Below are positions 25,372 through 48,779 of a stretch of 57,448 nt of DNA, one piece after another. The stretch comes from an uncultured Pirellulales bacterium (GTDB taxonomy: Bacteria; Planctomycetota; Phycisphaerae; Sedimentisphaerales; Anaerobacaceae). Under the pieces are notes generated by a model that was not told the DNA's origin, did not search any database, and saw only the letters and a program-made list of their open reading frames with translations. The first letter of the stretch is position 1. The number at the start of each line of letters is the position of its first letter. The DNA lies in assembly GCA_964429265.1 (NCBI GenBank), contig CAYSBK010000001.1:1-57448 (forward strand), written 5' to 3'. The translations under genes were made by a program, and so were the position numbers.

Positions 25372-27180
25372 ATGGCGGCTCACAAAGGCCGGCAGCCGCA
25401 ACAGATGGTGTTTGAGTTTGAAGACGGACCGGGGAAAAGCGTTTTGGCCAAGGTAAAGACGAAAAAGAAACAGAAAAAGGTCAAGCCTGGAAGGAGAACC
25501 GCCAAAAGTGGTAGCCCAGCGACCCGTCGGGCCGCGAAAAAGAAGAAAACAGCATCGCGGCGAGCCGGCAGCCCGGGCCGCAGGGCCCGACGAACGGCCA
25601 CGGAGCCTGCTACTATCGCAGAGGCTATGGCCGCACAGCAACGTGCGATAAGCATCAGCGAGTTCTTTGCAAAGAACCGACACCTTCTGGGCTTCGACAA
25701 TCCGCGAAAGGCGCTTCTTACCACTGCCAAGGAGGCTGTTGATAACTCGCTCGATGCCTGTGAGGAGGGGCGCATCCTGCCGGAGCTGGTGATAAAGATA
25801 GAGCCACTGGCCGAGAACAAGTTCAGGCTCACTGTCAGGGACAACGGCCCCGGCATCGTCAAACAGCAGATACCCAACATCTTCGCCCGCCTGCTATACG
25901 GCAGCAAGTTCCACAGCCTCAGGATGAGCCGGGGCCAGCAGGGTATCGGCATATCGGCAGCGGGTATGTACGGCTTGCTCACGACGGGTGAGCCGGTGCA
26001 GATTATCTCCCGCACCGACCCCCGTAAGAAAGCACATCATTATCACGTGCAGATCGATACAACAAGAAACCGACCGGAGGTTGTGCTCGACGAGGAATGC
26101 GATTTCGAACTTCGAACCGGGACAAGGGTTACGATAACACTCGAGGGCAGGTACCAGCGAGGCCGGCAGTCGGTTGATGAGTACATTGCCCAGACGGCAA
26201 TGGCCAATCCACACGCCTCAATCTATTACGAGGCACCCGACGGCAGCAAGTACGACTATCCACGACAGACGAACGAGCTTCCGCCGAGCCCGAGGCAGAT
26301 AAAGCCGCACCCGTACGGCGTGGAGCTGGGGCTTCTGTACAAGATGGCCAGGGAAAGCCAGTTCAAGCAGTTGTCAGCCTTCCTGCAGAATGAGTTTTCC
26401 CGCGTCAGCGGGCGGGTTGCCAACCAAATCTGCGAAAAGGCAAAGCTCCGCAAGACGCTGAGGCCTTCGAAGATGACGCTGAAGCAGGCCGAGGCACTGC
26501 ATTCGGCTATAAGCAGCACCAAGATTATGGCGCCTTCGACGAACTGCATCCAGCCCATCGGCAGCGAGGCGCTTCAGCAGGGCCTCAAACGCGTGGTGAA
26601 AGCGGACTTTTACACGGCCTGCACTCGCAGTCCGGCCGTTTATCGCGGCAACCCGTTTCTGATTGAGGCGGCGCTGGCCTACGGGTTCAAGAGCAACGGC
26701 AACGGCGGCGGCACAAATGACTCCGAGCCGATGATGCGCCTGATACGGATTGCGAACCGCGTGCCCCTGCTCTACCAGCAGTCGGCCTGCGCGATTCACA
26801 AGGCGGTGCTGGATATCAACTGGCGCAACTACGCGCTGAGCCAGAGCAGAGGGGCACTGCCCAGCGGCCCGGTGGTACTTATGGTCCACGTTGCATCGGT
26901 GTGGGTCCCGTTTACTTCCGAAAGCAAGGAAGCAATCGCCCATTACCCGGAGATCACCAAGGAGATACAACTTGCCGTGCAGGAATGCGGCAGAAAACTG
27001 GGGGCGTACCTGCGAAAAAAAAGACGTATCCAGCAGGAAATGGAAAAGCGAAGATACATTGAGACCTACCTGCCCTACATCGGCGAGGCCCTGCAGCACA
27101 TCCTGTCGCTGAAGCAAAGACAGGTCGATACGCTTATCTCCAGGCTCAAAAAGGTCCTCGAAAGGTCACGAAAGGTCTGA
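25372..27180 (+). CDS. top6B: DNA topoisomerase VI subunit B (GHKL ATPase plus transducer)
   Basis: SEFFAKNRHLLGFDNPRKALLTTAKEAVDNSLDA (Bergerat N-box), DNGPGI (G1) and GQQGIGIS (G2). A long transducer region closely parallels archaeal Top6B. The start is uncertain: ATG 25372 adds a K/R-rich 85-aa tail, while ATG 25627 gives an archaeal-like N-terminus. Confidence 0.85.
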   Translation: MAAHKGRQPQQMVFEFEDGPGKSVLAKVKTKKKQKKVKPGRRTAKSGSPATRRAAKKKKTASRRAGSPGRRARRTATEPATIAEAMAAQQRAISISEFFAKNRHLLGFDNPRKALLTTAKEAVDNSLDACEEGRILPELVIKIEPLAENKFRLTVRDNGPGIVKQQIPNIFARLLYGSKFHSLRMSRGQQGIGISAAGMYGLLTTGEPVQIISRTDPRKKAHHYHVQIDTTRNRPEVVLDEECDFELRTGTRVTITLEGRYQRGRQSVDEYIAQTAMANPHASIYYEAPDGSKYDYPRQTNELPPSPRQIKPHPYGVELGLLYKMARESQFKQLSAFLQNEFSRVSGRVANQICEKAKLRKTLRPSKMTLKQAEALHSAISSTKIMAPSTNCIQPIGSEALQQGLKRVVKADFYTACTRSPAVYRGNPFLIEAALAYGFKSNGNGGGTNDSEPMMRLIRIANRVPLLYQQSACAIHKAVLDINWRNYALSQSRGALPSGPVVLMVHVASVWVPFTSESKEAIAHYPEITKEIQLAVQECGRKLGAYLRKKRRIQQEMEKRRYIETYLPYIGEALQHILSLKQRQVDTLISRLKKVLERSRKV

Positions 27181-27197: not shown

Positions 27198-28571
27198 ATG
27201 TCACAAGCGCTGAAAATAACGGTCAGCGGACTGCGTGGAATCGTAGGGCAGGGCCTTACCGCAGAGGTCGCGCTGAACTACGGCTCGGCTTTCGGGGCGT
27301 TCCTGAACAGCTGCAGCAGCACCACGCAACCGCTGAAAGTGTGCGTCGGCAAGGATTCAAGGCCCAGCGGTGCGATGCTGGGCGCGGCGGTGACGGCCGG
27401 GTTGTGCCAGGTGGGCGTCGATGTTCTGGATTTGGGGGTCGTAACCACGCCCGGGGTGGCGGTTATGGTTGGTGAACTGAGCTGTGCGGGCGGGGTGGTA
27501 GTGACGGCCTCACACAATGGGCCCGAGTACAACGGCATCAAACTGCTGATGGAAGATTGCGCGGCCCCGCCCGGCGAGGTTGCCGAGCAGATAAAGCAGG
27601 GCTTTTTGCGTAAGGATTTCGAGCCGGCCAGTTCGCAGAGCTGTGGGACGGTTGGCTGTACGGACCGAACCGACGAGGTGCACATCGCCAGGGTGTTGGG
27701 CATAGTCGACAGGCAGAAGATCGCAGGGCGAAGCTTCCGAGTTGTGCTGGATAGCGTCAACGGGGCCGGGGGACGCGTGGCGGGTAAGCTGCTGGGGGAG
27801 CTGGGCTGCCGGGTTACCGCGGTCAACGCTGAGCCGACCGGCGATTTCGCCCATCCACCGGAACCGACAGCCGAAAACCTCACCCAGCTCTGTCGCCAAG
27901 TTGCGGCGACATCGGCCGACGTTGGTTTCGCCCAAGACCCTGACGGTGACAGGCTGGCCATAGTAGATGAGAACGGTACATACGTAGGCGAAGAATACAC
28001 GCTTGTGCTGGCCGCGAAGAATATCTTCAGCAAAAGAGCCGGAGCCGCCGCGACAAATCTTTCGACCTCCCGGATGATCGATGATGTGGCCGAGGCGTGT
28101 GGCTGCCGCGTTATCCGCACCGCCGTCGGCGAAGCCAACGTCGCCCGCGCGATGCTCCAACATAACTGCACCATCGGCGGCGAAGGCAACGGCGGCGTTA
28201 TCGACCTGCGCGTGAGTCCGGTTCGGGACAGTCTGGTTGCAATGGCGCTTGTACTGGAGCTTATGGCCGATAGCGGAAGGCCAATAAGCCAACTGGTCGC
28301 AGAGGTTCCTCGTTACTACATGGAGAAAGCGAAGTTTCCGGCCGACGAACAGCAAGCCAACAGATTCCTGCAGGTGGCGACCGAGAAATTTTCGACCGCC
28401 AGGCTCGATACGACCGACGGCTGCAGATTCGATTTCGAAGACGGCTGGTTGCACATAAGGGCCAGTAACACCGAGCCGGTTGTGCGGGTCATCGTTGAGG
28501 CCAGGGACAAACAGGCTGTCGAGAAATACCTGCATACCGTCGGAGAGATTCGCAAAGGCCTGGACGGCTGA
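27198..28571 (+). CDS. alpha-D-phosphohexomutase (phosphoglucosamine / phosphomannomutase family)
   Basis: Active-site TASHNGPEYNGIK, metal loop DPDGDR, and GGEGNGG sugar-binding loop. Confidence 0.85.
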   Translation: MSQALKITVSGLRGIVGQGLTAEVALNYGSAFGAFLNSCSSTTQPLKVCVGKDSRPSGAMLGAAVTAGLCQVGVDVLDLGVVTTPGVAVMVGELSCAGGVVVTASHNGPEYNGIKLLMEDCAAPPGEVAEQIKQGFLRKDFEPASSQSCGTVGCTDRTDEVHIARVLGIVDRQKIAGRSFRVVLDSVNGAGGRVAGKLLGELGCRVTAVNAEPTGDFAHPPEPTAENLTQLCRQVAATSADVGFAQDPDGDRLAIVDENGTYVGEEYTLVLAAKNIFSKRAGAAATNLSTSRMIDDVAEACGCRVIRTAVGEANVARAMLQHNCTIGGEGNGGVIDLRVSPVRDSLVAMALVLELMADSGRPISQLVAEVPRYYMEKAKFPADEQQANRFLQVATEKFSTARLDTTDGCRFDFEDGWLHIRASNTEPVVRVIVEARDKQAVEKYLHTVGEIRKGLDG

Positions 28572-28577
28572 AGAAAA

Positions 28578-29504
28578 ATGAACAGCGAAAAGTTCGAAAC
28601 CTCGAACCGCCAGATAAGGTTCATCACCAAGGTGGGGATCCTCGGCAACGTGGTCCTGTCGGTGGTGAAAGTGGTCGTCGGTGTCACTGCCGGTTCGATC
28701 TCGCTGGTGGCGGACGGCGTTCATTCGGCCTCCGATATGGCCACGGACTTCGCGGTGCTGATCGGAACCCATCTGGGTTGCAGACAACCGGACGAAAGGC
28801 ACCCATACGGGCACGGGCGGATTGAAACCCTTGCCGCGGCATTTATCGGCGTGGTGCTGGCGGCGGTGGGTTGCGGGATGATTTATCGAGCGGCTAAGGA
28901 TATCGCCGCCGGACACATTGTGACGCCGCGATTTATCGTGTTGTGGGTTGCCGGGTTGTCGATCCTCATCAAGGAGCTGTTATATAGGCTGACAAGGACC
29001 GTTGCCATTCGTACGCACAGTTCCGCGCTTTATGCAAACGCCTGGCACCACCGCTCCGATGCGATGAGCTCGGTGGCGGTGGTCGTGGGCTTCATATCCG
29101 AGCGGTTGGGTTTCATATACGGCGACCAGCTGGCAGCAGTGGCGGTAGGGTTGATGATTGTACTGGTGGCGGTCAGAGTGCTGGGTGACTGCCTGCGCGA
29201 GTTTACCGAGACAGCCACCGACCCAAAAACTATCGAGCACATAAAGAGCATCATCAGCCGGAACAAGCAGGTCCGCCAGTGGCACAAACTGAGGACCCGC
29301 ATGGTAGGCAGGGAAATATTCCTCGACCTTCACATCCTGGTCGAGCCGGAACTTACCGTTGCAGCGGCCCACGGGATAGCCGAAAAGCTTGAGCAAACCC
29401 TTCATCAGGAACTGGCCCGCCCGGCCAACATTATGATTCACATAGAACCCGACACCCCGCAGATGCGGGAAGTATCGGCCTCGGACCGCACCGAGCGCCA
29501 TTGA
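28578..29504 (+). CDS. cation diffusion facilitator (CDF) family metal efflux transporter
   Basis: Six TM helices with HSASDMATD and HHRSDAMSS metal-site motifs and a C-terminal cytoplasmic domain. Confidence 0.85.
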   Translation: MNSEKFETSNRQIRFITKVGILGNVVLSVVKVVVGVTAGSISLVADGVHSASDMATDFAVLIGTHLGCRQPDERHPYGHGRIETLAAAFIGVVLAAVGCGMIYRAAKDIAAGHIVTPRFIVLWVAGLSILIKELLYRLTRTVAIRTHSSALYANAWHHRSDAMSSVAVVVGFISERLGFIYGDQLAAVAVGLMIVLVAVRVLGDCLREFTETATDPKTIEHIKSIISRNKQVRQWHKLRTRMVGREIFLDLHILVEPELTVAAAHGIAEKLEQTLHQELARPANIMIHIEPDTPQMREVSASDRTERH

Positions 29505-29882: not shown

Positions 29883-30007
29883 CACCAAAGTACCTGCTAT
29901 ACCAAGAGGCGCTGACCGGGGTGCCCTCAAAAAACGCTTGCAAGGGCGCCGCTATCACAATATCTTAGGGTCTCCAATCGGGATTGCAAAAGTTAGCTGG
30001 GGTTGCT

Positions 30008-32113
30008 ATGGGTTTCGAAGATTTTCTCGATCCGAAATCGGTTGCCGTGGTTGGTGCCTCCCGACACCAGGGCAGGGTAGGCTACGAGGTGCTTGCGAAT
30101 CTCGTCAAAAGCGGGTACGGCGGTGCCATATACCCGGTCAATCCCAACGCTGATACCCTGCAGGGGCTTAAGTGTTACCCCGACATAGTGTCGATCGGAC
30201 AAACACCGGAGCTGGTCGTGGTCGTAGTTGCAGCCAAGCGAACCCCGCAGGTGATGGAACAATGCGCCCGGGTAGGGACCAAGTGTGTCATCATTATCAC
30301 CGCCGGTTTCAAAGAAACGGGCAGCGAAGGAGAAAAACTGCAGGCCAGGTTGTTGCAAATCGCCAAGCGAGCCGGCATCAGAATCCTGGGCCCGAATTCC
30401 TTGGGTGTGCTGGTTCCGGCAAGAAAACTCAACGCCAGTTTCGGCGGAGATTTGCCCGCAGCCGGTTCTGTCGGCTACATCTCGCAGTCAGGAGCGCTTC
30501 TGGCGGCGATCATCGACATCGCAAATGCCACCGGCACCGGCTTTAGCATCATGGTCAGCATCGGCAACAAGGCTGATATCGACGAGCTGGACGTTCTCAG
30601 GGTTCTCGGCAACGACCAGGCCACCGGGGTTATCGCCGGGTACCTCGAGAGTATCAACGACGGCAACGCGTTCGTCAGGGAAGCGGAACGGATATCGCGA
30701 GACAAGCCCATATTGCTGGTCAAGTCGGGCATCACCTCGGCCGGTGCCCGTGCGGTGCGCTCGCACACCGGAAGTCTCGCCGGCACTGATGCCGCCTACG
30801 AGTGCGTATTTGAGCGGGCGGGAATCATCCGATGCGACTCGATAAAGTCACAACTGAACTATGCGAGGGCTTTTACCGGCCGGTCGCTGCCCAAGGGCCG
30901 ACGTGTGGCCATCGTTACCAACGCCGGCGGGGCGGGGATTATGGCCGCCGACTACGTCGAACGCCAGGGGTTGGTTATGGCCGAGTTTTCCCAGCAGACC
31001 CTCAAGAGATTATCAGCGGTGCTGCCGACGGCGGCAAGCCTGCACAACCCCGTTGATATTCTCTGCGACGCGCTGGCAGACCGGTATGCACTGGCACTGC
31101 AAGCTGTGCTCGACGATGCAAACGTGGATATGGTGCTTGTATTGATGACCCCACAGGCTATGACGCAGGCAGCAGCGACTGCAAGGTCCGTCGTGGAGTT
31201 GTGGAGGCAGACGGACAAGCTGATCTTAGCCAGTTTCTTGGGAGCCCGGAAGGTACAGGAAGGGGCCTGCATTCTGCAAAGAGCGGGCGTGCCGTACTAT
31301 GACAGTCCGGAGGAGGCTGTTGCGGCCGCCCGGATTGTCGCTCAATACGTCGACTGGCGGAACAGGCCGAGGCGGGTGGTAAGATACTTCCCCGTTAATC
31401 GCAGAAAAGTCGAGACGATACTGGACAAACACAAAAGACGCGGCAGCACGCAGATCGGCGAGATCGAGGCGAAAGAGATACTCGAGGCCTACGGGTTTGC
31501 GGTGCCCACCGCCGCGGTTGCCACGACGGCCGAGCAGGCTGCCAACATCGCGGAAGAAATTGGTTTTCCGGTGGCATTGAAGATATGGTCGCCCGAGATA
31601 ATCCACAAAATGGATGTCGGGGGAGTGAAGCTCGGCCTCAAGACGGGGCAGGAGGTTATGGATGCCTTCGACCTTATGATGTACAGGATTCCGAAGCTCG
31701 CGCCTCAGGCCAACATACTGGGCGTGGTGGTGCAGGAAATGATAAGCAGGGGAAAGGAGGTCATCCTCGGGATGTACCGTGACCCACAATGTGGGCCGGT
31801 TATGATGTTCGGAATGGGCGGAACGATGGTGGAGGTGCTCAGCGACGTCTCGTTTTACCTGGCGCCGCTGACGGCCGAAGAGGCAAGGCAGATGCTGGTC
31901 GCAACCAAAACCTACCGGATGCTCAGGGGGCTGCGGGGCGAACAGCCGGTGGACATCGATGCGATTGCCGAAGCGCTGCAGAGACTTTCGCAACTTGCCA
32001 CCGAGTTTCCGCAGATCCAGCAGATGGACATAAATCCCTTCGCGGTAGGTCCGAAGGGAACCACACCCGTGGCTGTTGACGCCAGAATCAGCCTCGAAAC
32101 CGGCCAATCATAG
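30008..32113 (+). CDS. ADP-forming acetyl-CoA (acyl-CoA) synthetase, fused alpha-beta type, paralog 1
   Basis: CoA-binding N-terminus (SVAVVGASRHQGRVG) and phosphohistidine loop SHTGSLAG. Ligase-CoA domain and C-terminal ATP-grasp (GFPVALKIWSPEIIHKMDVGGV). Confidence 0.85.
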   Translation: MGFEDFLDPKSVAVVGASRHQGRVGYEVLANLVKSGYGGAIYPVNPNADTLQGLKCYPDIVSIGQTPELVVVVVAAKRTPQVMEQCARVGTKCVIIITAGFKETGSEGEKLQARLLQIAKRAGIRILGPNSLGVLVPARKLNASFGGDLPAAGSVGYISQSGALLAAIIDIANATGTGFSIMVSIGNKADIDELDVLRVLGNDQATGVIAGYLESINDGNAFVREAERISRDKPILLVKSGITSAGARAVRSHTGSLAGTDAAYECVFERAGIIRCDSIKSQLNYARAFTGRSLPKGRRVAIVTNAGGAGIMAADYVERQGLVMAEFSQQTLKRLSAVLPTAASLHNPVDILCDALADRYALALQAVLDDANVDMVLVLMTPQAMTQAAATARSVVELWRQTDKLILASFLGARKVQEGACILQRAGVPYYDSPEEAVAAARIVAQYVDWRNRPRRVVRYFPVNRRKVETILDKHKRRGSTQIGEIEAKEILEAYGFAVPTAAVATTAEQAANIAEEIGFPVALKIWSPEIIHKMDVGGVKLGLKTGQEVMDAFDLMMYRIPKLAPQANILGVVVQEMISRGKEVILGMYRDPQCGPVMMFGMGGTMVEVLSDVSFYLAPLTAEEARQMLVATKTYRMLRGLRGEQPVDIDAIAEALQRLSQLATEFPQIQQMDINPFAVGPKGTTPVAVDARISLETGQS

Positions 32114-32132
32114 CTGCGATGTGGAGCGACTT

Positions 32133-34244
32133 ATGAGCCTCGAAGTTTTTTTTAATCCGAAGTCGACCGCCGTTGTTGGTGCTTCGCGCCACAAGGGCAA
32201 AGTGGGATATGAAATCATAGCGAATATGATACGCGCCGGCTACGCGGGAAAGCTGTGGCCGATAAACCCGAAGGCAGACCAGATTGAAGGCCTTAAGTGT
32301 TTTCCAGACCTTCGCTCGTTGCCGGAGGTGCCGGAGCTTGTGGTCATAGTGGTGCCCGCCCCGGCCGTACCAGAGGTAATGCAGCAGTGTGCCGATGTCG
32401 GTGTGAAAGCCGTGATTATCATTACGGCCGGCTTCAAGGAAGTAGGGCGACACGGCCGTGAACTTGAACAGCGGGTGGTCCAGATCGCACGGCAGGCCGG
32501 AATACGGGTCATAGGGCCGAACTGTTTGGGCGTGATAGTGCCTGCAAGCAAACTGAACGCCAGTTTCGCTGCGGAGATGCCACGGTGCGGCAACATCGCG
32601 TACCTGTCGCAGTCTGGGGCGCTGCTGACGGCTATCCTGGACATCGCCGTCGCCAACGACATAGGCTTCAGCAAACTTGTCAGCATCGGAAACAAGGCGG
32701 ATGTTGACGAACTCGACATCATAGAGGCTCTTGCCGAGGACGATGATACCCGGGTAATTGCCGGCTACCTCGAGAGCGTCTCGCAGGGTGATGCATTTGT
32801 GCGACAGGCTGAGCAGATATCACACAGCAAGCCGATATTGCTGATGAAGTCGGGCGGCACGGGCGCCGGCGCAAAGGCGGCGTCATCGCATACCGGCAGC
32901 CTTGCCGGCAGTGAAACGACGTACGAGGCCGCCTTTGCCCGAGCCGGTGTGGTTCGTTGTGACTCGATCAAGGACCAGTTCGACTACGCTCAGGCCTTTG
33001 CATACCAGCCGTTACCAGAGGGAAACCGCGTTGCGGTCATAACCAATGCAGGCGGACCAGGTATTATGGCGGCCGACGCCGTCGAACGGCAGGGCCTGTC
33101 GTTTGCAAAGTTTTCACAGCAGACCGTTGGGGCGCTTCGAGGCAAGCTGCCTGCTGAGGCCAATCTCTTGAACCCGGTTGACGTTCTCGGTGATGCCCGG
33201 GCCGACCGTTACCAACTGGCGATGGATGCCGTTCTGGCCGACGCCAATGTTGACGCGGTGCTGGTACTGTTGACCCCGCAGGCGATGACCGAGCCGGCGC
33301 GAACGGCGCAGGTGGTGGTCGAATCGGCTGCCGGCGGCGGGTCAAAGCCGGTGCTGGCGTGCTTTCTGGGTGGGGCAAAGGTTGCCGAGGCGTTGAGGAT
33401 ACTGCGGCAGGGTCGTGTCCCCCCGTATGACTCGCCGGAAAGCGCGGTCGCGGCCCTCAAGGCGATGTGCGACTATGCACGATGGCGCCGCAGGCCGAAG
33501 CGCATCGTCAAGCTGTTCGCCGTGAACCGCAGGAAGGTTGAGGCGATAATCGAAAGGCACCTGCGGCAAGGTATAAGAGAGATACCGGAGAGCGAATCGA
33601 AAGAGATACTCGAGGCATACGGCTTTCTTACTCCGAAGGGCGCCGTCGCCACCGACGCCGACCAGGCGGTGGAGATCGCCCGCCAACTCGGTTACCCCGT
33701 GGTGCTGAAGATATGGTCTCCGGACATTCTGCACAAGTCGGATGTCGATGGTGTCCAACTCGGACTTTCGACCGACAAGCAGGTACGTGATGCTTTTGAC
33801 CTTATGATGTACCGAATACCCAAGAAGATGCCCCGGGCGAAGATACTGGGCGTGCTCGTTCAGCAGATGTGCGGCGGCGGCCGGGAAGTGATTCTGGGTA
33901 TGAAGCGGGACCCCCACTTCGGGCCTTTGATGATGTTCGGAATGGGTGGGACGATGGTTGAAGTGCTCAAGGACGTTTCGTTTTACCTGGCGCCGCTGAC
34001 GGCCGAGGAAGCCAAGCAGATGCTCACAAGCACAAGAACGTACAGGATGCTTGAGGGCGTCCGAGGCCAGGAAGGCGTAGATATAGACGCCTTGGCCGAG
34101 GGTCTGCAGCGACTTTCGCAATTGGTGACGGAGTTTCCTCAAATCCAGGAGATGGACATAAATCCGTATATCGTCGGACCGCCCGGCACGACGCCCGTAG
34201 CCGTGGACGCCAGGATAAGCGTCGAGGCAGTTACAAGGGGATAA
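32133..34244 (+). CDS. ADP-forming acetyl-CoA (acyl-CoA) synthetase, fused alpha-beta type, paralog 2
   Basis: Same architecture as paralog 1, and collinear with it along the full length (VVGASRH, IIITAGFKE, SQSGALL, SHTGSLAG, MMFGMGGTMVEVL). It starts 19 nt after paralog 1. Confidence 0.85.
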   Translation: MSLEVFFNPKSTAVVGASRHKGKVGYEIIANMIRAGYAGKLWPINPKADQIEGLKCFPDLRSLPEVPELVVIVVPAPAVPEVMQQCADVGVKAVIIITAGFKEVGRHGRELEQRVVQIARQAGIRVIGPNCLGVIVPASKLNASFAAEMPRCGNIAYLSQSGALLTAILDIAVANDIGFSKLVSIGNKADVDELDIIEALAEDDDTRVIAGYLESVSQGDAFVRQAEQISHSKPILLMKSGGTGAGAKAASSHTGSLAGSETTYEAAFARAGVVRCDSIKDQFDYAQAFAYQPLPEGNRVAVITNAGGPGIMAADAVERQGLSFAKFSQQTVGALRGKLPAEANLLNPVDVLGDARADRYQLAMDAVLADANVDAVLVLLTPQAMTEPARTAQVVVESAAGGGSKPVLACFLGGAKVAEALRILRQGRVPPYDSPESAVAALKAMCDYARWRRRPKRIVKLFAVNRRKVEAIIERHLRQGIREIPESESKEILEAYGFLTPKGAVATDADQAVEIARQLGYPVVLKIWSPDILHKSDVDGVQLGLSTDKQVRDAFDLMMYRIPKKMPRAKILGVLVQQMCGGGREVILGMKRDPHFGPLMMFGMGGTMVEVLKDVSFYLAPLTAEEAKQMLTSTRTYRMLEGVRGQEGVDIDALAEGLQRLSQLVTEFPQIQEMDINPYIVGPPGTTPVAVDARISVEAVTRG

Positions 34245-34248
34245 CGGT

Positions 34249-36117
34249 ATGCAGCAGGTTGACTGGCAGCAGCGATACAAAGACAAGATCGGTACGGCCG
34301 CGGCGGCGGTAAAGCTCATAAAGCCCGGCAGCAGCATCTTCATAGGCACGGGATGTGCCCAGCCGAGGCACCTTGTGCGTGCCCTTGTCGAACACTCCAG
34401 CCACATCTACGACGCTCACATAATACATCTTCTGACTATGGGTGAGGCACCCTATGCCGATGAGAAGTTCCGGGAAAAGTTCAAGACGAACAGTTTCTTT
34501 ATCGCCGACAACATCCGCGATGCGGTGCAAAAAGGTATCGGCGACTACACCCCCATGTTTCTTTCGGAGATACCGCTCGAATTTGAAAGCGGGCGAATCC
34601 CCATTGATTTCGCCTTCATCACCGTTACGCCGCCGGATGCCAACGGCTTGTGCAGCCTGGGTGTTTCTGTGGATATCGTCAAGTCGGCAGCGTCCAACGC
34701 CCGCTTTGTGGTGGCCCAGGTCAACAGCAGGATGCCCCGAACCCTCGGCGACAGCTTCCTGCATGTCAGCGGTATCGATATGCTGGTGCCCTGGGACGAG
34801 GACGTTATCGAGGTCCCAGTGCCTGAATCAGACGAGGTATTGCGCGGAATCGGTCGCAATATCGCCAGGCTGGTCGAGGACGGCAGCACCATTGAGTGTG
34901 GCATAGGCCGAATACCGCAGGCCCTGGCCGAGTTCCTCAAGGACAAGCGAGACCTCGGCGTGCACACCGAAATGTTCGGTGACTGGATTATCGACCTTAT
35001 CGAGTGCGGTGCGATCACCTGCGCGAAAAAGACGCTGAATCGTGGAAAGGTCGTCGCCAGTTTCTGTATGGGTTCAAGGCGTTTATATCATTACATAAGC
35101 GACAATCCTATGTTTGAGTTCCATCCCACCGAGTACGTCAACGACCCGCAAATCATCGCCCGGCACGAAAAGATGGTGGCCATCAATGTGGGACTCGAAA
35201 TCGACGTGACGGGGCAGGTCTGTGCCGATTCTCTTGGCTATCAGTTTTACAGCGGCTTCGGAGGCCAGGTTGATTTCATCCGCGGCGCAGCACGAAGCAG
35301 GGGCGGAAAACCCATCATCGCGATGCCTTCAACCGCCAAGGACGGGCAGGTCTCGCGAATCGTACCACACCTGACCGAGGGAGCCGGCGTCGTCACTACC
35401 CGCGGTGACGTGCACTACGTTGTTACCGAGTACGGCATCGCGTACCTGCACGGAAAGAACATACGGGAAAGATGTCTCGAATTGATAAACATCGCTCATC
35501 CAAAGTTTCGAAAAGAACTTGTTCGCGCCGCAAAAACGCAGAAATACATCTACGAGGACCAGATCGAGCTTTCGTGGGAGCAGTTGCGATATCCGGAAGA
35601 GCTGCAGAGGTACGAGACGCTTCGTGACGGCACTCAAATATTCTTTAGGCCCGTCAAGCCAAGCGACGAGCCGGCACTGTCGCAGATGCTTTATTCGCTC
35701 AGCGAGGAATCGGTTCGCAAAAGGTATATGGCGCGCACAAGGGCCTTTCCACACAAGGACGTTCAGCAGCTGACGAACATAGATTACAAGAACAACCTTG
35801 CCATCGTGGGCGTGGTGCCGGGCGTTTCGGGCGAAGAGATAGTGGCGATTGCACAGTACTTCCTCGACCCGAAGACCGCCGTGGCCGAAGTTGCTTTTCT
35901 TGTGCAGGACGAGTGGCAACGGAAAGGAATGGGTACGCTGCTGCTGGATTACCTGACAGAAATCGCCCGCAAGCGCGGTGTAAAGAGGTTCTGCGCAACC
36001 GTTCTGCCCGGCAACAAGCCGATGCTGTCGATCTTCAACAATTCGCGGTACAAGGTTAACACCGAGTTCGACGGAGAGCTTTATACGATATGGTACGACC
36101 TGGACAGCAAAAAGTAA
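34249..36117 (+). CDS. acetyl-CoA hydrolase/CoA-transferase domain fused to a Pat-type GNAT (putative protein lysine acetyltransferase)
   Basis: N-terminal 4-hydroxybutyrate CoA-transferase-like region with GVHTEMFGD (catalytic Glu context) and GFGGQVDF. C-terminal GNAT with LRDGTQIFFRPVKPSDEPAL and QRKGMGTLLL acetyl-CoA loop. Confidence 0.85.
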   Translation: MQQVDWQQRYKDKIGTAAAAVKLIKPGSSIFIGTGCAQPRHLVRALVEHSSHIYDAHIIHLLTMGEAPYADEKFREKFKTNSFFIADNIRDAVQKGIGDYTPMFLSEIPLEFESGRIPIDFAFITVTPPDANGLCSLGVSVDIVKSAASNARFVVAQVNSRMPRTLGDSFLHVSGIDMLVPWDEDVIEVPVPESDEVLRGIGRNIARLVEDGSTIECGIGRIPQALAEFLKDKRDLGVHTEMFGDWIIDLIECGAITCAKKTLNRGKVVASFCMGSRRLYHYISDNPMFEFHPTEYVNDPQIIARHEKMVAINVGLEIDVTGQVCADSLGYQFYSGFGGQVDFIRGAARSRGGKPIIAMPSTAKDGQVSRIVPHLTEGAGVVTTRGDVHYVVTEYGIAYLHGKNIRERCLELINIAHPKFRKELVRAAKTQKYIYEDQIELSWEQLRYPEELQRYETLRDGTQIFFRPVKPSDEPALSQMLYSLSEESVRKRYMARTRAFPHKDVQQLTNIDYKNNLAIVGVVPGVSGEEIVAIAQYFLDPKTAVAEVAFLVQDEWQRKGMGTLLLDYLTEIARKRGVKRFCATVLPGNKPMLSIFNNSRYKVNTEFDGELYTIWYDLDSKK

Positions 36118-36129
36118 CGAGAAGAAGAT

Positions 36130-37266
36130 GTGAATCAGAAGAAATCGGTTTTCATATACTCTGAAGAACTTGAGAAGTACAGCTATCCACCGGACCATCC
36201 CTTCAACACCATCAGAGCGACAAGGGTGCGGCAGATTGCAGATTCGATGGGCCTGCTGAGCGGTCCCGGCAGAAGCGAGGTCCCGCCGCAGCCGGTCGAC
36301 AGGATAACCCTGAAAAAGTTTCACACGGCCAGGTACCTGCACGCATTGAGGCTGGCCGGGCAGGGACGTTTCGACCCCGAGGCGATACGCATGGGCATCG
36401 GCACTGGTGATTGCCCCGCCTTCGAGGGCGTGTACGAGTATTCGGTCCTGGCGGCCGGCGGTACCGTAACGGCTGCAAGGATGATACTGGATGGTACGGC
36501 CGACATCGCTTTCAACCCATCGGGTGGGTTTCATCACGCCGGACCGGAAAAGGCTTCGGGGTTCTGCTACATCAACGACGTTGTACTGGGCTGTATGATA
36601 CTGGCCGAGGCCGGCAAACGCGTGCTCTATCTCGATGTCGATGTTCACCACGGCGACGGTGTCGCCTATGCGTTTTATAACAGAAGCGACGTTATGACAA
36701 TCTCATTCCACGAGAATCCCCGGGCTTTCTTTCCGGGCACGGGTTTCGAGGACGAAACAGGCGCTGATGCCGGCAAAGGCTACTGCGTAAACGTTCCGCT
36801 GCCGGTGGGAACATTCGACGAGGCGTACTTAACCGCATACAATGAGTTGGCCGTGCCTCTGATAAAGGCGTACCAACCCGACGTTTTTGTTTTCGAGTTG
36901 GGCGCCGACGCCCTTGCCGGCGACCCGCTGGCCCATCTCTGTCTCACCAACAACGCGTATGCCGAGATAATCCAGAGCCTGCTGAGCTTCGGCAGGCCGA
37001 TTCTTATGACAGGAGGCGGCGGCTACAACGTCGACAACACGGTCCGTGCCTGGACGCTGGCGTGGAGCCTGCTGGCCGGCGGACCAACCGACGCCGAGGC
37101 CAATCTCGGAGCGGGCGGTGTTATGCTCGGAAGCACCGAGTGGCAAGGAGGACTGCGCGACAGGACGCAGGTGATAGGCCAGCGCCAGAGGGACATCGTA
37201 ACCGCAGCCGTCCGGCAGGTCATCGAAAGGGTCAAGGCGAACGTGTTTGCAATCCACGGGCTGTAG
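36130..37266 (+). CDS. acuC: histone-deacetylase-family (AcuC-like, Zn-dependent) protein/acetoin deacetylase
   Basis: GGFHHAGPEKASGFCYIND, DVDVHHGDG and GGGGYN motifs. GTG start 12 nt after the GNAT fusion. Confidence 0.85.
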   Translation: MNQKKSVFIYSEELEKYSYPPDHPFNTIRATRVRQIADSMGLLSGPGRSEVPPQPVDRITLKKFHTARYLHALRLAGQGRFDPEAIRMGIGTGDCPAFEGVYEYSVLAAGGTVTAARMILDGTADIAFNPSGGFHHAGPEKASGFCYINDVVLGCMILAEAGKRVLYLDVDVHHGDGVAYAFYNRSDVMTISFHENPRAFFPGTGFEDETGADAGKGYCVNVPLPVGTFDEAYLTAYNELAVPLIKAYQPDVFVFELGADALAGDPLAHLCLTNNAYAEIIQSLLSFGRPILMTGGGGYNVDNTVRAWTLAWSLLAGGPTDAEANLGAGGVMLGSTEWQGGLRDRTQVIGQRQRDIVTAAVRQVIERVKANVFAIHGL

Positions 37267-37338
37267 AGTTCCGGTGCGCACAGACGAACACCCGAATACG
37301 AGGTCGGGGCACCGGGTCTTGCCGGAGGAATACCGGCG

Positions 37339-37935
37339 TTACCGCACGGCCCCCAGCGGCAGAACGGCCCGCCCAAAGACCTCGTTCAATACCTGAGCAA
37401 AAGCCGTGTAAACAGCCGACAACCCGCAGAAGATACCTTCATATCCCGCCAAGGTCGCGATGAAGGTGTTGCCTGTGGCGTCCTTGATGGCCAGCAGGAA
37501 GAACAACACGGCCAGTGAACCGAATACAACCTGAAGCGCCTTGTTCAACCTGAGCGTGCCGACAAACATCACCGTGGTGAACACGCCCCACATCAACAGG
37601 TAAGCAACCATCGCGCCGGTTGCCGGAGCACCGGCAAGCCCCATTTTCGGCATAAGTATCAGGCCAACCAGCGTTAACCAGAACAGCCCATACGAGCAGA
37701 ACGCGGTCGTGCCGAAGGTGTTACCCTTTTTCCACTCCATAACGCCCGCTATTATCTGCGCCAGGCCGCCGTAGAAGATTCCCATTGCAAGGATCATTGA
37801 GCCCAGTCCGAAAAGGCCGGCGTTGTGCAGGTTTAGCAGCACCGTGGTCATTCCGAAGCCCAGCAGGCCAAGCGGTGCCGGGTTGGCCGTCGTATCCTTT
37901 ACGGTCAACAGATGTTCGTCAGTCTGATTCTGCAT
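37339..37935 (-). CDS. satP: GPR1/FUN34/YaaH-family acetate/succinate channel (SatP-like)
   Basis: [14 protein letters not shown] signature, six TM helices, YGLFWL. Strong AAGGAG RBS before ATG 37935. Confidence 0.85.
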
Positions 37936-38014
37936 AGACACTTCTCCTTTGCTTATGGCGGATTTGCTCAACAAATCGAAAGAGGTTTTACAAACCCTGT
38001 GCCCCCTTGTAGCC

Positions 38015-39994
38015 TTAACCGCGGCCCCTGATCAACGCCTCGACGACGCCGGGGTCGGCCAACGTGCTGATGTCGCCGAGGTCCTCGGTCCTTCGCTCGG
38101 CTATCTTGCGAAGGATCCTGCGCATAATCTTGCCCGACCGTGTCTTGGGAAGGGCTGCAGCAAATTGAATCGCCTCGGGCGCGGCGATGGGGCCGATTTC
38201 CTTGCGAACGTGCATAATCAGCTCTTTCTTCAGTTGCTCGCTTTCCTCGACCCCTTCGACAAGTGTCACGAAGGCATACAGGGCCTGGCCCTTGACCTCG
38301 TGTGGGATTGGCGTAACGGCCGCCTCGGAAACTTTGTCGTGGCTTACCAGCGCGCTTTCCACCTCGGCGGTGCCGATGCGATGGCCGGAGACGTTGACCA
38401 CGTCGTCGATTCTGCCCATAAGCCAGTAATCACCGTCTTCGTCAATTCTGCAACCGTCGCCGGTGAAGTACACGTTCTCGAACATCGTGAAGTAAGTGTC
38501 GATGAACCGCTGGTGGTCGCCCCACATCGTTCGCATCATTCCGGGCCACGGCCTGCGAATGCACAGCTTGCCGCCTTCGTTGACATCGCATTGGGTGCCG
38601 TCGTCTCGCAGCACAACCGGGTCGACGCCGAAGAAGGGTCGGCTGGCACTTCCCGGCTTTAGAGTGTGTGCACCCGGCAGCGGCGTAATGAGTATCCCGC
38701 CTGTTTCGGTCTGCCACCACGTGTCAACGATTGGGCATCGGCCTCGACCGATCTTCTCGTGGTACCATATCCAGGCCTCCGGGTTGATTGGTTCGCCCAC
38801 CGAACCCAGTATCCGAAGCGTATCCAGTTTGTACTTTGCCGGCCACTCGTCACCCAGCCGCATCAACGCTCGAATGGCGGTCGGCGCGGTGTAGAATATC
38901 GTTACGCCGAACTTGTCGCAGATATGCCAGAACCGGCCCGCATCCGGGTAGGTCGGCACCCCCTCAAACATCAGGGAAGTTGCACCGTTGGCCAGGGGCC
39001 CGTAAACAATGTAGCTGTGGCCGGTCACCCACCCTATATCAGCGGTGCACCAGTAAATATCATCGTCGTGCACGTCGAAGATCACCTTGTGACTGAAGGC
39101 CACGTGCAGAAGATACCCGCCAGTGGTATGAACGACACCCTTCGGCTTGCCGGTCGAGCCTGAGGTATAGAGAATGAACAAGGGGTCCTCGGCGTTCATC
39201 CGCTCGGGTTCGCACTCCTGCGGGGCATCGGCCATCAACTCGTGATACCACTGGTCCCGGCCGGGTTGCATCTCACAAGGGTCATCGGCGACCTTCACCA
39301 CGATAACACCCTCAATGCTCGGGGTGTTCTTCAGCGCCTGGTCCGCGATGGCTTTCAGGCCGATCCGCTTGCCAGCCCGCAGCGACACGTTGCTGGTAAT
39401 CAGCAACCTGCAGTCCGAATCGTTTATCCTGCCTTCCAGGGCCTCGGCGCTGAATCCGCCGAACACCACCGAGTGAATCGCCCCTATCCGCGCGCAGGCC
39501 AGCATCGCCACCGGCAATTCCGGAACCATCGGAAGGTAAATCGCCACGCGGTCGCCCTTCTTGATGCCCTTCGACTTCAGCACGTTGGCGAACTTGCAAA
39601 CCTCCTTGTGGAGCTGTTCATAGGTGTACTTGCGAACGGCATCCTCGGCCTCGCCCTGCCAGATAATGGCGGTCTTTTTCGCCACGGGCGTACCAAGGTG
39701 CCGGTCGAGGCAGTTGTAGCTGGCGTTAAGTTCGCCGTCCGCGAACCACCTGTGCTCAACCTTGCGGGCGGCGGTGTCCCAGGTGTATTCCAGACTCTTG
39801 GTGGGTTCCCTGAACCAGGACAGCATCCTGGCCTTCTCCAGCCAGAAACCGTCCGGGTCGTTCAGTGACTGCTGCCACATCTTTTGCCATTGTTCGAAGC
39901 TGTTGATGTAGGCCTTGTTTTGTATCTCGGCCGGCGGCGCAAATGTCCGCTTCTCGCTCATCAACGAATCAATCGCCTTCTGTTCACTGCTCAT
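38015..39994 (-). CDS. acs: acetyl-CoA synthetase (AMP-forming)
   Basis: [19 protein letters not shown] and C-terminal [11 protein letters not shown] (the regulatory/catalytic Lys codon is at 38129-38131). Full-length, 659 aa. Confidence 0.95.
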
Positions 39995-40122
39995 AACACA
40001 CCCCTTCTGTTACAACCACGTCTGCTCGAAAAGCCAAAACTTTCTTTGGAATCTGCAGAGACCAAGATTTTACGGACCTGTTCAAAAGTATCAACCAAAA
40101 ACCCCGGAAACTTCGATGTTTC

Positions 40123-41514
40123 TCAAAACCTGTATATAAACGAGCCCTGAAACCTCAGGTCATCCGCATCACCCGGGCCCCTGTACTCGGTTTTCCAGTG
40201 AGAAACCTCAATGCCGATCTCCGTGTTGGCATCGAGGTGGTAAATGGCATTGCCGAAGACCGAACGGTTGAGCACTCTGTCGCCGGTGCCGACATCATCG
40301 GAATCGACATCGTCAATCCCGCAGCCGATATTAAAGCTCCAGTTATCCCAGGGCCCCAGTGTGGCGGCTGCCCATCCGCCCCGGCTGTCAATTTCGTGAA
40401 GCCGGGTTGTGTTGACGCCCTGGCCGATACCGCCGAAGTAGCTGTCCAAGTCCCGGCCCGTAAACAATTCCCCTTTGACGGTGAGCCACGAGCAAACGGG
40501 CTGGTTCAGGTCGAGGTTCAGCGACCAGCTTTCGAAGTCCTTGTTACTGCCGCCGGTGTTCGGGTCGTATTCCTCCGTCCCGTAATGGCCCGAGAATCCG
40601 ATTGTCGCAGGCTTGTACCCCAAGCCGGGAAAAGTCAGACCGATACGCCCCTGCACGGTGGGAAAGCCCGCGTCTTCGCCAGTTTCGGAACCGGTCAGGT
40701 CATTTCTGCCGATGGTTCTCGATATTGCAGCCTGCAAGTTTACATTGATATCCTTTTGAACCTGGAAATCTTTTGTAACCCGTACCTGCGGATGCCTGTA
40801 GCCGATATTGCCAGCGTCCCACAAGACGGTATAGTTCAGTGTCCGCGGCACCAGCGGCGATATCACGTCGGAGGTTTGCCCCGCCAGAATACCAAAGTGA
40901 TCGCCCGGCCAGTCGAGCGTCAGGTATGCGTGGCGCATCTGGATCTTTGCCTTATTCTCAGCGGCGTAGTTGCCGTAGAAATCCACCTCCAGCCGACCGG
41001 CCGCGCTGAAACCATTCTCTGCCGGGCCTTTGATTCGCATACCCACCCTGGTCTCGTTGGCGGTAACGTTGAATTCGTCGTCGTTGTTGCGCTGGTCCTC
41101 GCGGTCGAGATATACCACGTAATTGCCCGGATGGCTGCGCGACGTATCGTAGGATGCGTCCGCCTTAAGAAACCCATAGATTTCAATATCCAGATTTGAC
41201 GATACGTTTTTCTTCGGTGGTGCCGCTGGCGCAGGTGCCGCAGCCTTGCCAGGCCGATCCGTGGAAGGCGCGGTGCTGGTTGCCGCTGCCGTGCCGCGTT
41301 CGCGACCGGCGGTAACGGTGCCATTCTGGGTCAATACTATCTGCTTTAGCTGTGAAAGCTCTTTTTCGAGCATTTCGACTCTTTTGCGAAGCTCCGCGTT
41401 CTGTCTGGCCAGGTCCTCAAGGTCGTCGGCCCTGCACAGAGCCGTGGCGACGGCTGCCACGCACATACACGCAACAACTGTGTTTTTGCTCATAACCGGT
41501 GCCCTTTGTTTCAT
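40123..41514 (-). CDS. outer-membrane beta-barrel porin with N-terminal coiled coil (DcaP-like architecture)
   Basis: Signal peptide, heptad-rich LEDLARQNAELRKRVEMLEKELSQLKQIV, and a P/A-rich linker. Then alternating-hydrophobic beta strands ending in the OMP terminal motif FQGSFIYRF. Confidence 0.7.
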   Translation of the reverse strand: MKQRAPVMSKNTVVACMCVAAVATALCRADDLEDLARQNAELRKRVEMLEKELSQLKQIVLTQNGTVTAGRERGTAAATSTAPSTDRPGKAAAPAPAAPPKKNVSSNLDIEIYGFLKADASYDTSRSHPGNYVVYLDREDQRNNDDEFNVTANETRVGMRIKGPAENGFSAAGRLEVDFYGNYAAENKAKIQMRHAYLTLDWPGDHFGILAGQTSDVISPLVPRTLNYTVLWDAGNIGYRHPQVRVTKDFQVQKDINVNLQAAISRTIGRNDLTGSETGEDAGFPTVQGRIGLTFPGLGYKPATIGFSGHYGTEEYDPNTGGSNKDFESWSLNLDLNQPVCSWLTVKGELFTGRDLDSYFGGIGQGVNTTRLHEIDSRGGWAAATLGPWDNWSFNIGCGIDDVDSDDVGTGDRVLNRSVFGNAIYHLDANTEIGIEVSHWKTEYRGPGDADDLRFQGSFIYRF

Positions 41515-47696: not shown

Positions 47697-48779
47697 ATGC
47701 TTGAGAGAATTTACAGGGCGCAGCAGGCAATGGACTCGGCCTGCAGGCATCTCGGCCGGCAAATCAACATCATGGAGGTTTGCGGCACGCACACGGTATC
47801 GATCTTTCGCAACGGGATAAGGGCGACGCTGCCGCAGCAGTTGAAGCTCCTTTCGGGTCCGGGCTGTCCGGTGTGCGTTACGGACCAGGGCTATATCGAC
47901 GACGTCCTGGAACTGGCCGCTCGCGATGATGTCATCATAGCTACTTATGGCGATATGGTTCGCGTACCCGGAGCGGGCGGCTCTCTTGAAACCAGACAAC
48001 CGGCCGCAAATGTCAAGGTGGTTCTCAGCAGCGAGGATGCCCTGCAATTGGCAAGGGATAATCCCGATCGCACGGTGGTCTTCGTGGCGGTCGGATTCGA
48101 GACGACCGCCCCGGCCACGGCAGTGGCGGTCAAAGAAGCGGCAGCCGAGGGTATTGACAATTTCTGCGTCCTCAGCGCACACAAGCTGGTTGTGCCGGCG
48201 ATGCGCGCCCTGGTTTCAGAGAAAAATAATAAGATTGATGCCTTTTTGTGTCCCGGTCACGTCAGCGCGATAATCGGGTATGGCGCGTTCCAGGAGATAG
48301 TCGAACAGTTCGGCCGGCCCTGCGTGGTCGCCGGTTTCGAGCCGATGCAGATTATCGAAGGCCTCGCGGAAATCTGCCGCCAGCTACAGAACCACAAGCC
48401 CGAACTGAAATCCATTTACACCGCCGTGGTCACCCACCACGGCAATACCGCCGCCCAGGATGTTATGGACCAGTGCTTCGAGAAGACCGACGGCTACTGG
48501 CGCGGCCTGGGCAAAATTGACAACAGTGCCCTGCGGTTGAAAAGCACATACAGTGATTTCGACGCAGTCAGAAGATTCAACATCGAACAGCACCACGGCG
48601 AAGAACCACCCGGCTGCCGCTGCGGCGAGGTGTTGTGCGGCCTTATCGAGCCGCCCGATTGCGGACTTTTCGGCGTTCAGTGCAAACCGTCCGAGCCCGT
48701 CGGGCCCTGCATGGTAAGCTCCGAGGGCGCCTGTGCCGCGTGGTTCAAGTACACTGGGAGAAGAAACGGCAACGAATGA
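47697..48779 (+). CDS. hypD: hydrogenase maturation Fe-S protein HypD
   Basis: GPGCPVCV, CPGHVS and C-terminal cysteine-rich motifs. Confidence 0.92.
   Translation: MLERIYRAQQAMDSACRHLGRQINIMEVCGTHTVSIFRNGIRATLPQQLKLLSGPGCPVCVTDQGYIDDVLELAARDDVIIATYGDMVRVPGAGGSLETRQPAANVKVVLSSEDALQLARDNPDRTVVFVAVGFETTAPATAVAVKEAAAEGIDNFCVLSAHKLVVPAMRALVSEKNNKIDAFLCPGHVSAIIGYGAFQEIVEQFGRPCVVAGFEPMQIIEGLAEICRQLQNHKPELKSIYTAVVTHHGNTAAQDVMDQCFEKTDGYWRGLGKIDNSALRLKSTYSDFDAVRRFNIEQHHGEEPPGCRCGEVLCGLIEPPDCGLFGVQCKPSEPVGPCMVSSEGACAAWFKYTGRRNGNE

Follow-up and report, generated by a model that had tools for sequence, protein, structure and literature searches.

Reversible acetylation of acetyl-CoA synthetase (Acs) by Pat-type enzymes is the model case for bacterial metabolic control by protein acetylation. 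In reviews and in a structure-based census from 2025, these acetyltransferases are classified into types I, II, III (with cAMP, ACT or NADP domains), IV and V only; besides these three kinds of regulatory domain, the classification knows the ADP-forming-synthetase domain, and enzymes with none. In PatZ, the regulatory domain is a dead CoA-binding enzyme domain which senses acetyl-CoA and also shapes the pocket for Acs (PMC12184503). In B. subtilis, acsA adjoins acuABC, and AcsA is acetylated by AcuA and deacetylated, NAD-independently, by AcuC (PMC8556138). Here, a stretch of 57,448 nucleotides from an uncultured Pirellulales bacterium (contig CAYSBK010000001.1; the whole stretch is called the window in the following) was analyzed, in which one gene encodes a CoA-transferase fused to a GNAT-family acetyltransferase. 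This fusion most likely belongs to a widespread, so far undescribed class of switches in bacterial acetate metabolism, because a complete CoA-transferase and a Pat-type GNAT are joined in it beside a deacetylase and three acetate-activating enzymes. No publication on a protein of this kind came up in full-text literature searches, and the architecture is absent from the 2025 structure-based census of GNAT types. An identical 622-aa protein (P0001) is already held in the public protein collection, and the names given to the fusion in databases are 'GNAT family N-acetyltransferase' and 'acyl-CoA hydrolase/RimJ/RimL'.

The fused protein and its two domains

A preliminary description of this DNA had proposed a Pat-like GNAT joined to a CoA-transferase/Ach1-like domain, and the Pfam scan found both in a single open reading frame (ORF) of 622 aa. 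The features of the gene are as follows, those marked as codons having been verified in the nucleotide sequence:

34249-36117, + strand: CoA-transferase-GNAT fusion ORF, uninterrupted, 622 aa
34249-35541, + strand: CoA-transferase domain, AbfT/RipA-like family I, residues 1-431 (Pfam, PDB, Foldseek)
34969-34971, + strand: codon of the nucleophile Glu241, verified
35254-35277, + strand: GFGGQVDF oxyanion motif (GXGG), residues 336-343, codons verified
35428-35430, + strand: codon of Glu394 (TEYG), verified
35542-36117, + strand: linker and Pat-type GNAT domain, residues 432-622
35722-35724, + strand: codon of Arg492 (PatZ R754, gating motif), verified
35887-35889, + strand: codon of catalytic Glu547 (PatZ E809), verified
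35917-35934, + strand: acetyl-CoA P-loop QRKGMG, residues 557-562, codons verified

The Pfam matches are AcetylCoA_hydro (PF02550, residues 21-187, 2e-27) and AcetylCoA_hyd_C (PF13336, residues 275-428, 2e-67), with Acetyltransf_1/GNAT at the C-terminus (PF00583, residues 500-593, 2e-9). The motifs named beforehand all occupy their expected places, namely GVHTEMFGD at residues 237-245, GFGGQVDF at 336-343 and QRKGMG at 557-562, and LRDGTQ lies at residue 458.

The N-terminal domain had been likened to 4-hydroxybutyrate CoA-transferase, and it proved to be a family I CoA-transferase in which the nucleophile Glu and GXGG are present. In the PDB sequence search, residues 10-428 are covered over their whole length by RipA and by 4-hydroxybutyrate CoA-transferases of known structure (9vag, 1.7e-135; 3gk7/AbfT, 2e-115; also 3eh7 and 2oas), the identity to AbfT/RipA-type enzymes being 41-44%. 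Moreover, Foldseek on the predicted structure recovered the two-domain alpha/beta fold of the family, with a TM score of 0.94 and a root-mean-square deviation (rmsd) of 1.3 Å to 3gk7. The succinate CoA-transferase model TIGR03458 reached 112.9 bits, below its cutoff of 658.7. In family I enzymes, the nucleophile Glu forms a glutamyl-CoA thioester, the equivalent residue in RipA being Glu249 (PMC3180442). In the alignment with 3gk7, Glu241 of the fusion (HTEM) falls on AbfT Glu238. Judged from its residues, the CoA-transferase domain of the window protein is catalytically intact; since Glu241 and the oxyanion motif are both in place, it probably forms a glutamyl-CoA intermediate and may also turn over substrate.

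The GNAT domain had been called Pat-type, and by both sequence and fold its nearest solved neighbors are PatZ, SlPat and Rv0998. Residues 448-608 align without gaps to PatZ 710-870 in the PDB sequence search, and likewise to the SlPat GNAT and Rv0998; the ranking is PatZ (7e-23), SlPat (9e-21), Rv0998 (2e-15), MsPat (8e-10) and Sulfolobus Pat (2e-4), and the first small-molecule GNAT is a phosphinothricin-AT-like protein at 5e-3. The Foldseek order of neighbors is the same as the PDB sequence order (matches 9it0, 4u5y, 4nxy, 4avb), the neighbors including liganded PatZ (rmsd 1.8 Å), the SlPat GNAT:Acs complex 4u5y (TM 0.92) and Rv0998, so that neither ranking places the domain among small-molecule GNATs. 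The best NCBIfam match, over residues 458-600, is the mycobacterial Pat model NF058543 (6e-26). Furthermore, the Pat-specific N-terminal extension of the GNAT is conserved in the fusion, and PatZ R754, E809 and P-loop G822-G824 correspond to R492, E547 and G560-G562, of which R492 is at least 93% conserved across the diverse family. These PatZ residues, R754 belonging to the gating motif and E809 being equivalent to SlPat E123, are essential or ligand-binding (PMC12184503). The assignment as a Pat-type protein-lysine acetyltransferase domain, as opposed to a small-molecule GNAT, is thus supported by sequence and predicted fold.

The AlphaFold2 model of the whole chain, built from a diverse alignment, reached a pLDDT of 94.1 and a pTM of 0.90; a shallow alignment of 80%-identical homologues gave a pLDDT of 41 and was set aside. 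Because the pTM exceeds what is expected for two freely hinged domains, the model suggests a fixed interface between the 430- and 190-residue domains, a reading taken from the pTM score.

Distribution of the fusion and erosion of the transferase site

A word-indexed search returned at least 8000 candidates, and all 120 among the matches listed were full length at about 80% identity. At the genome level, 80 loci encode the full-length fusion at 72-81% identity, nearly all of them in metagenome-assembled genomes (MAGs) of Phycisphaerae, Sedimentisphaerales or Anaerohalosphaeraceae and including the 5.06-Mb chromosome CP070806. Searched exhaustively, a set of 1.84 billion representatives yielded 22,263 matches; both domains are carried by 86 of the 149 best 50%-cluster representatives, at identities down to about 33%, so that the two domains are far from being separate genes in all relatives. 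Planctomycetota (Phycisphaerae) have the fusion in abundance, and it occurs in further phyla as well. When the GNAT part alone served as the query, the matches were almost exclusively pieces of the same fusion on short contigs, which does not amount to a census of architectures, and a profile search with the diverse alignment recovered mostly the clade of the window and one further clade at 55% identity. For the metagenome scan, an 8-sequence subset alignment of degenerate members was used, a 31-sequence alignment being too divergent; the resulting distant set comprises 80 metagenome loci at 40-64% identity. Several long reading frames seen among the relatives, the ACD-fusion read-through ORF of locus L127 (1267 aa; ACD, ADP-forming acyl-CoA synthetase) and those of L119, L124 and L091, were rejected as out-of-frame upstream extensions that are no fusions.

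Both Glu241 and Glu547 occur throughout the 80 close orthologues, wherever the position is covered. The wider family was represented by 72 full-length fusions, of which 41 have Glu as the nucleophile, 15 have Asp and 16 have one of various other residues (Gln, Val, Cys, Ala, Gly, Phe, Pro, Ser, Ile, Thr or His), and the second Gly of GXGG (G339) is retained in 41 of the 72. In the same proteins the GNAT motifs persist, with the catalytic Glu/Asp in 69/72 and the P-loop Gly560 in 67/72. In family I transferases, replacement of Glu by Asp can yield a hydrolase, as in glutaconate CoA-transferase bE54D. For this reason only the 16 non-acidic variants are counted as clearly dead. Of 39 stand-alone homologues, 38-39 keep GG and 32 keep the nucleophile Glu, the remaining seven having Gly and belonging to one subclade (P0346, P0359, P0364, P0368, P0371, P0372 and P0374, with HSGM or HTGI and GGQ kept). 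The losses are scattered over many branches of a rough neighbor-joining tree, and one coherent metagenome clade combines HS[DN]V and G-x-[SA]-[TA]-Q with intact GNAT motifs.

From these residue counts, an eroded nucleophile and GXGG against persistent GNAT motifs, it follows that the constant activity of the family is predicted to be that of the GNAT, and that the CoA-transferase domain appears to have lost catalysis repeatedly and yet been retained. The pattern matches that of PatZ, whose ADP-forming-synthetase domain is catalytically dead (PMC8556138). The acyl-CoA-sensing role suggested in the preliminary description finds support, at the level of the family, in the repeated loss of CoA-transferase residues; in the window protein itself the residues are intact and catalysis is possible.

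Gene neighborhood in the window and in relatives

The fusion gene belongs to an acetate cluster extending over 29984-41514, in which ACD1, ACD2, the fusion and the HDAC gene follow each other on the + strand and genes for a SatP/AceTr transporter, Acs and a DcaP-like porin converge on them from the - strand:

29984-32113, + strand: ACD1, ADP-forming acyl-CoA synthetase with fused alpha and beta parts, 709 aa, first of the four + strand genes
32076-34244, + strand: ACD2, ADP-forming acetyl-CoA synthetase-type, 722 aa as listed, stop 4 nt before the fusion ATG
36130-37266, + strand: class I HDAC/AcuC-like Zn-dependent deacetylase, 378 aa, GTG start 12 nt past the fusion stop
37339-37974, - strand: SatP/AceTr acetate uptake transporter, 211 aa, transcribed towards the + strand cluster
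38015-39994, - strand: Acs, AMP-forming acetyl-CoA synthetase (NF001208, 1037.7, cutoff 657; TIGR02188, 998, cutoff 725)
40123-41514, - strand: DcaP-like porin of the outer membrane, coiled coil at the N-terminus, downstream of acs (PF19577, 4e-8)

An HDAC/AcuC gene 12 nt downstream of the fusion had been claimed, and the ORF at this place matches PF00850 (4e-81), its best PDB matches being Clr6, Rpd3, HDAC8 and HDAC1-3. The active-site motifs are intact (GGFHHAG at 132, DVDVHHGDG at 169, GADALAGD at 258 and GGGGY at 295), and the protein carries the class I signature of a His-His pair, Asp-His-Asp zinc ligands and the catalytic Tyr. Acs, whose gene lies about 1.9 kb downstream of the fusion, contains the PX4GK motif PKTRSGK with Lys622 (codon 38129-38131, verified); no other protein of the cluster, the two ACDs included, has such a motif. 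The transporter was identified by PF01184 (2e-40) and AceTr_1 NF038013 (285.6, cutoff 50) and recurs together with acs in 9 related loci.

Regarding the two synthetases, ACD1 comprises CoA_binding_2, Succ_CoA_lig, Ligase_CoA_2 and ATP-grasp_5 domains, scores slightly below the TIGR02717 cutoff (535 against 567 bits) and has the phospho-His loop SHTGSLAG at residue 260. ACD2 passes the same acetate-CoA ligase alpha model (588.6, cutoff 567.15), has the ADP-forming 4-hydroxybutyrate-CoA ligase 8wzu as its best PDB match (5e-162) and is collinear with the whole regulatory domain of PatZ (1.3e-106). Unlike PatZ, which is without the loop, ACD2 retains the catalytic phospho-His loop AASSHTGSLAGS, aligned to the loop of the ACD 4xyl. 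Since this loop is kept and the ligase cutoff is passed, ACD2 is predicted to be a live enzyme and not a dead module of the PatZ kind, and for the same reasons its role as a trans-acting dead subunit, in a 'split type I Pat', was rejected; a physical complex of ACD2 with the fusion is possible. The ACD1 and ACD2 ORFs overlap by 38 nt as listed; ACD2 homology begins at about residue 20 (MSLEVFF...), and the true ACD2 start is probably at about 32133 (Met at residue 20), the paralogues being simply adjacent.

In the clade of the window, the gene preceding the fusion could be assessed in 69 loci, and in 65 of these it is an ACD gene of the same strand, which makes the ADP-forming synthetase, mentioned earlier merely as a possible substrate, the most constant partner of the fusion. 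An HDAC gene immediately follows the fusion in 30/66 loci, immediately precedes the ACD in 11/65 and is found anywhere in the flanks in 51/80, and acs occurs in the flanks of 19 of the 41 loci that have at least 6.5 kb downstream. One locus (L032, 5878-15150) carries two tandem ACD-fusion pairs, whose fusions are 78% and 73% identical to that of the window, and then one HDAC gene. In the metagenome set, an ACD adjoins the fusion on the same strand, upstream or downstream, in about 14-21 loci depending on the criterion, an HDAC gene is adjacent in several loci, and acs is the immediate same-strand neighbor of the fusion in L101, L118, L141, L154 and L161.

The pairing with a deacetylase, claimed beforehand from this one locus, is strengthened by this conserved synteny and by Rosetta-stone fusions in relatives: P0282 (L163, 6001-9042) and P0285 (L164, 2122-4989) are uninterrupted polypeptides in which CoA-transferase, GNAT and HDAC domains follow each other, and by their sequences they are natural single-chain writer-eraser proteins. 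Their nucleophile is replaced by Asp (P0282) or Gly (P0285) and GG is lost in both, the GNAT and HDAC motifs being intact. The HDAC domain of P0282 is 35% identical to the window HDAC over its full length. Since the HDAC of P0285 is of a different subtype from that of P0282, the triple fusion appears to have arisen twice. Additionally, the gene of P0296 (L167, 321-6985, and L168), a fusion with Gln as nucleophile and SS in place of GG, is the first of an operon in which those of Acs, an HDAC and a second AMP-forming acyl-CoA synthetase follow at distances of 22, 17 and -4 nt.

Other arrangements were seen in relatives. P0244 and P0247 (L165, 6001-8883; Myxococcales MAG, RJO65015.1) are proteins of about 960 aa in which an N-terminal 4Fe-4S dicluster domain is followed by a CoA-transferase domain that is dead (Gln or Val as nucleophile) and then by the GNAT; they may be a redox-responsive version. 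In a Calditrichota-like lineage of about 55% identity (L081, 7408-12386, and L082), the fusion gene has genes for small proteins with a Clp_N domain on one side and, beginning 7-10 nt downstream, a ClpC/ClpB-like AAA+ gene on the other, with no ACD, Acs or HDAC gene nearby, and the target there may be a different one. In one lineage (L103, 3135-3566; L112, 5747-6202; L121), the gene of a small ACT-pair protein (PF19571) precedes the fusion on the same strand, either as its neighbor or with one gene in between.

The DcaP-like porin gene also adjoins acs in L001, L003, L009, L131, L148 and L153, and the porin is a probable carboxylate channel (acetate or other) and a peripheral member of the cluster. 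A scan of the window for promoters and terminators gave nothing above shuffled background. The genes beyond the cluster are unrelated (serA, Topo VI-B-like, hypF, hypE). The ORF at 25372-27180 (+ strand) is Topoisomerase VI B-subunit-like (PF09239 transducer, 6e-58, and HATPase_c); no Topo VI A subunit was recognized beside it, the neighboring ORF at 27510-28916 (- strand) having no Pfam match. HypF (45097-47433, + strand) and a HypE-like, AIR synthase-related protein (48635-49798, + strand) belong to hydrogenase maturation, which is consistent with an anaerobic, fermentative host.

Proposed function, alternatives and comparison with described systems

With moderate confidence, we regard the locus as a whole as best explained by a Pat-class writer with a CoA-transferase regulatory domain which, together with an AcuC-like eraser, controls Acs. 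In this scheme, the GNAT would acetylate Lys622 of Acs, which is put forward as the target because its PX4GK motif is the only one in the cluster. The HDAC would reverse this acetylation, as AcuC does for B. subtilis AcsA, and the CoA-transferase domain would bind acyl-CoA, CoA and acetate and tune the GNAT in the manner of the CoA-binding domain of PatZ. Such a switch would keep the ATP-yielding, co-transcribed ADP-forming synthetases from running against Acs, which converts ATP to AMP. The link to Acs lies in the convergence of acs and satP on the cluster, here and in many relatives, in the acs genes directly beside the fusion in distant loci and in the P0296 operon. Because the transferase domain is intact in the window protein and across the lineages in which an ACD adjoins the fusion, it may also act as an enzyme on its substrates, use its covalent intermediate for sensing or provide acetyl-CoA made from acetate. 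A more tentative version makes catalysis itself the sensor: free Glu241 against the Glu241-CoA thioester would read the acetyl-CoA:acetate ratio, or the domain would make acetyl-CoA in situ from acetate and another acyl-CoA, either of which would gate or feed the GNAT. If so, the operon with its translationally coupled ACD and its eraser would be a self-contained switch for the direction of acetate flux, and the relatives would have evolved a single writer-eraser chain steered by a dead domain, with a logic comparable to that of AceK or GlnE.

Several observations weigh against control of Acs by a regulated writer. The ACD, and not Acs (19/41), is the most constant neighbor, and the principal partner or target could be the ACD. 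Unrelated neighbors, such as a ClpC-like ATPase, citrate synthase and ilv/leu genes, occur in several lineages, so that acetate genes recur beside the fusion but do not accompany it everywhere. The catalytic set of the CoA-transferase is fully conserved in the clade of the window and kept in lineages of 50-64% identity, and the full conservation in the clade argues for retained catalysis here as opposed to a pure sensor. Neither domain reaches the cutoff of a functionally specific model: the butyryl-CoA:acetate CoA-transferase model TIGR03948 gave 278.7 bits against 674.8, and the equivalog NF058543 gave 91 against 460 bits, over profile positions 133-273 (the GNAT part) only. Finally, the geometry between the domains is judged from the pTM score, and the activities of the family are predicted from sequence, model and synteny.

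The alternative that survives best, though we consider it rather unlikely, is that the fusion is mainly a metabolic enzyme, in which CoA would be moved between acetate/acetyl-CoA and butyrate, propionate, succinate or 4-hydroxybutyrate, the GNAT acetylating the ACD or the transferase as feedback; in series with the co-translated ACD, the transferase would form an ASCT/SCS-like ATP-yielding cycle. The intact Glu241, GGQVDF and Glu394 here and in the 50-64%-identical lineages fit such a role, as do the live ACD with its phospho-His loop 4 nt upstream, the ACD position conserved in 65/69 loci and the degree of conservation, which is higher for the fusion (76%) than for ACD2 (70%) and HDAC (62%). 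Moreover, in the metagenome set an adjoining ACD is seen only with catalytically intact fusions (14/51 against 0/13 of the others, Fisher p = 0.054); the loci are not phylogenetically independent and this association is only suggestive. Against it, relatives with a dead nucleophile retain the GNAT and the linkage to Acs and HDAC, which makes the GNAT the constant function, neither ACD has a PX4GK motif, and Pat-type GNATs act on AMP-forming synthetases, with no Pat-acetylated ACD on record in the reviews. As a bifunctional protein, the metabolic enzyme is partly compatible with the control of Acs proposed above.

A small-molecule pathway, in which the CoA-transferase would make an acyl-CoA, the GNAT would acylate an amine (polyamine or amino acid) and the HDAC-family protein would serve as amidohydrolase, appears very improbable. 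Both the GNAT and HDAC families include small-molecule enzymes, and there is a weak NCBIfam match to ArsN1 (5e-4) besides the JGI name 'RimJ/RimL'; the best GNAT neighbors, however, are all Pat-type, with small-molecule GNATs at about 5e-3 or weaker, the Pat N-terminal extension and gating Arg are conserved, the HDAC is of class I (Rpd3/HDAC8-like) and not of the APAH type, and the recurrent operons include Acs. That the fusion is an artefact of assembly or gene calling joining two separate genes is hardly conceivable, since the short GNAT-only or half-length entries found in databases are mostly on 1-2 kb contigs or flagged partial, whereas the ORF in the window is continuous, at least 120 homologues of full length were obtained from samples independent of each other, complete chromosomes among them (CP070806, 5.06 Mb), and the 86 divergent cluster representatives have both domains.

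Read as a regulated writer for Acs, the locus would add a CoA-transferase-derived class to the regulatory domains of Pat enzymes. The natural series from intact to dead transferase domain and on to the single-chain writer-eraser is suited to the study of how an enzyme domain becomes an allosteric sensor and of how acetyl-CoA and acetate levels are read. Furthermore, it offers a hypothesis for how anaerobic fermenters possessing both ADP- and AMP-forming acetyl-CoA synthetases might escape a futile, ATP-wasting cycle.

Compared with described systems, the CoA-transferase part corresponds to AbfT of C. aminobutyricum, RipA of Y. pestis and butyryl-CoA:acetate CoA-transferases, in that AbfT E238 and RipA E249 are E241 of the fusion and GXGG is shared; these enzymes, however, consist of the transferase alone (about 430-450 aa, no GNAT), and members of the fusion family often lose the catalytic residues that AbfT-type enzymes carry. 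With acuABC of B. subtilis, the locus shares a GNAT writer and a class I HDAC-type eraser encoded together near acs. Whereas AcuA is a free protein, the writer of this locus is a GNAT of the Pat type joined to a CoA-transferase; acs is convergent here and divergent there, and, unlike in B. subtilis, two ADP-forming synthetases share the operon. AcuB has no counterpart in the window, and the ACT-pair protein beside some relatives of the fusion resembles it.

The type I enzymes, E. coli PatZ and S. enterica Pat, are like the fusion in that a large domain derived from a CoA-handling enzyme precedes the GNAT and that Acs is likewise the presumed target. The GNAT of PatZ is the closest solved relative, the extension, gating Arg, catalytic Glu and P-loop being common to both. 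The type I architecture itself is not matched, as the accessory domain of the fusion is a family I CoA-transferase instead of an NDP-forming synthetase; furthermore, the accessory domain of PatZ is without the catalytic His, whereas that of the fusion appears intact, and the homologue of the PatZ regulatory domain is here a separate, live ACD gene 4 nt upstream. With the type III enzymes (Rv0998, MsPat, ACT-GNAT and NADP-GNAT), the fusion shares the order of an N-terminal regulatory domain, a few hundred residues long, and a Pat-type GNAT after it; the GNAT folds 4avb/4avc match that of the fusion, and the mycobacterial Pat is the best NCBIfam model. The cyclic-nucleotide, ACT and Rossmann domains of type III are absent, and the ligand of the fusion would be an acyl-CoA or a carboxylate as compared to cAMP, an amino acid or NADP+. 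By its domain order, the fusion would formally be classified as a type-III-like Pat with a new regulatory domain.

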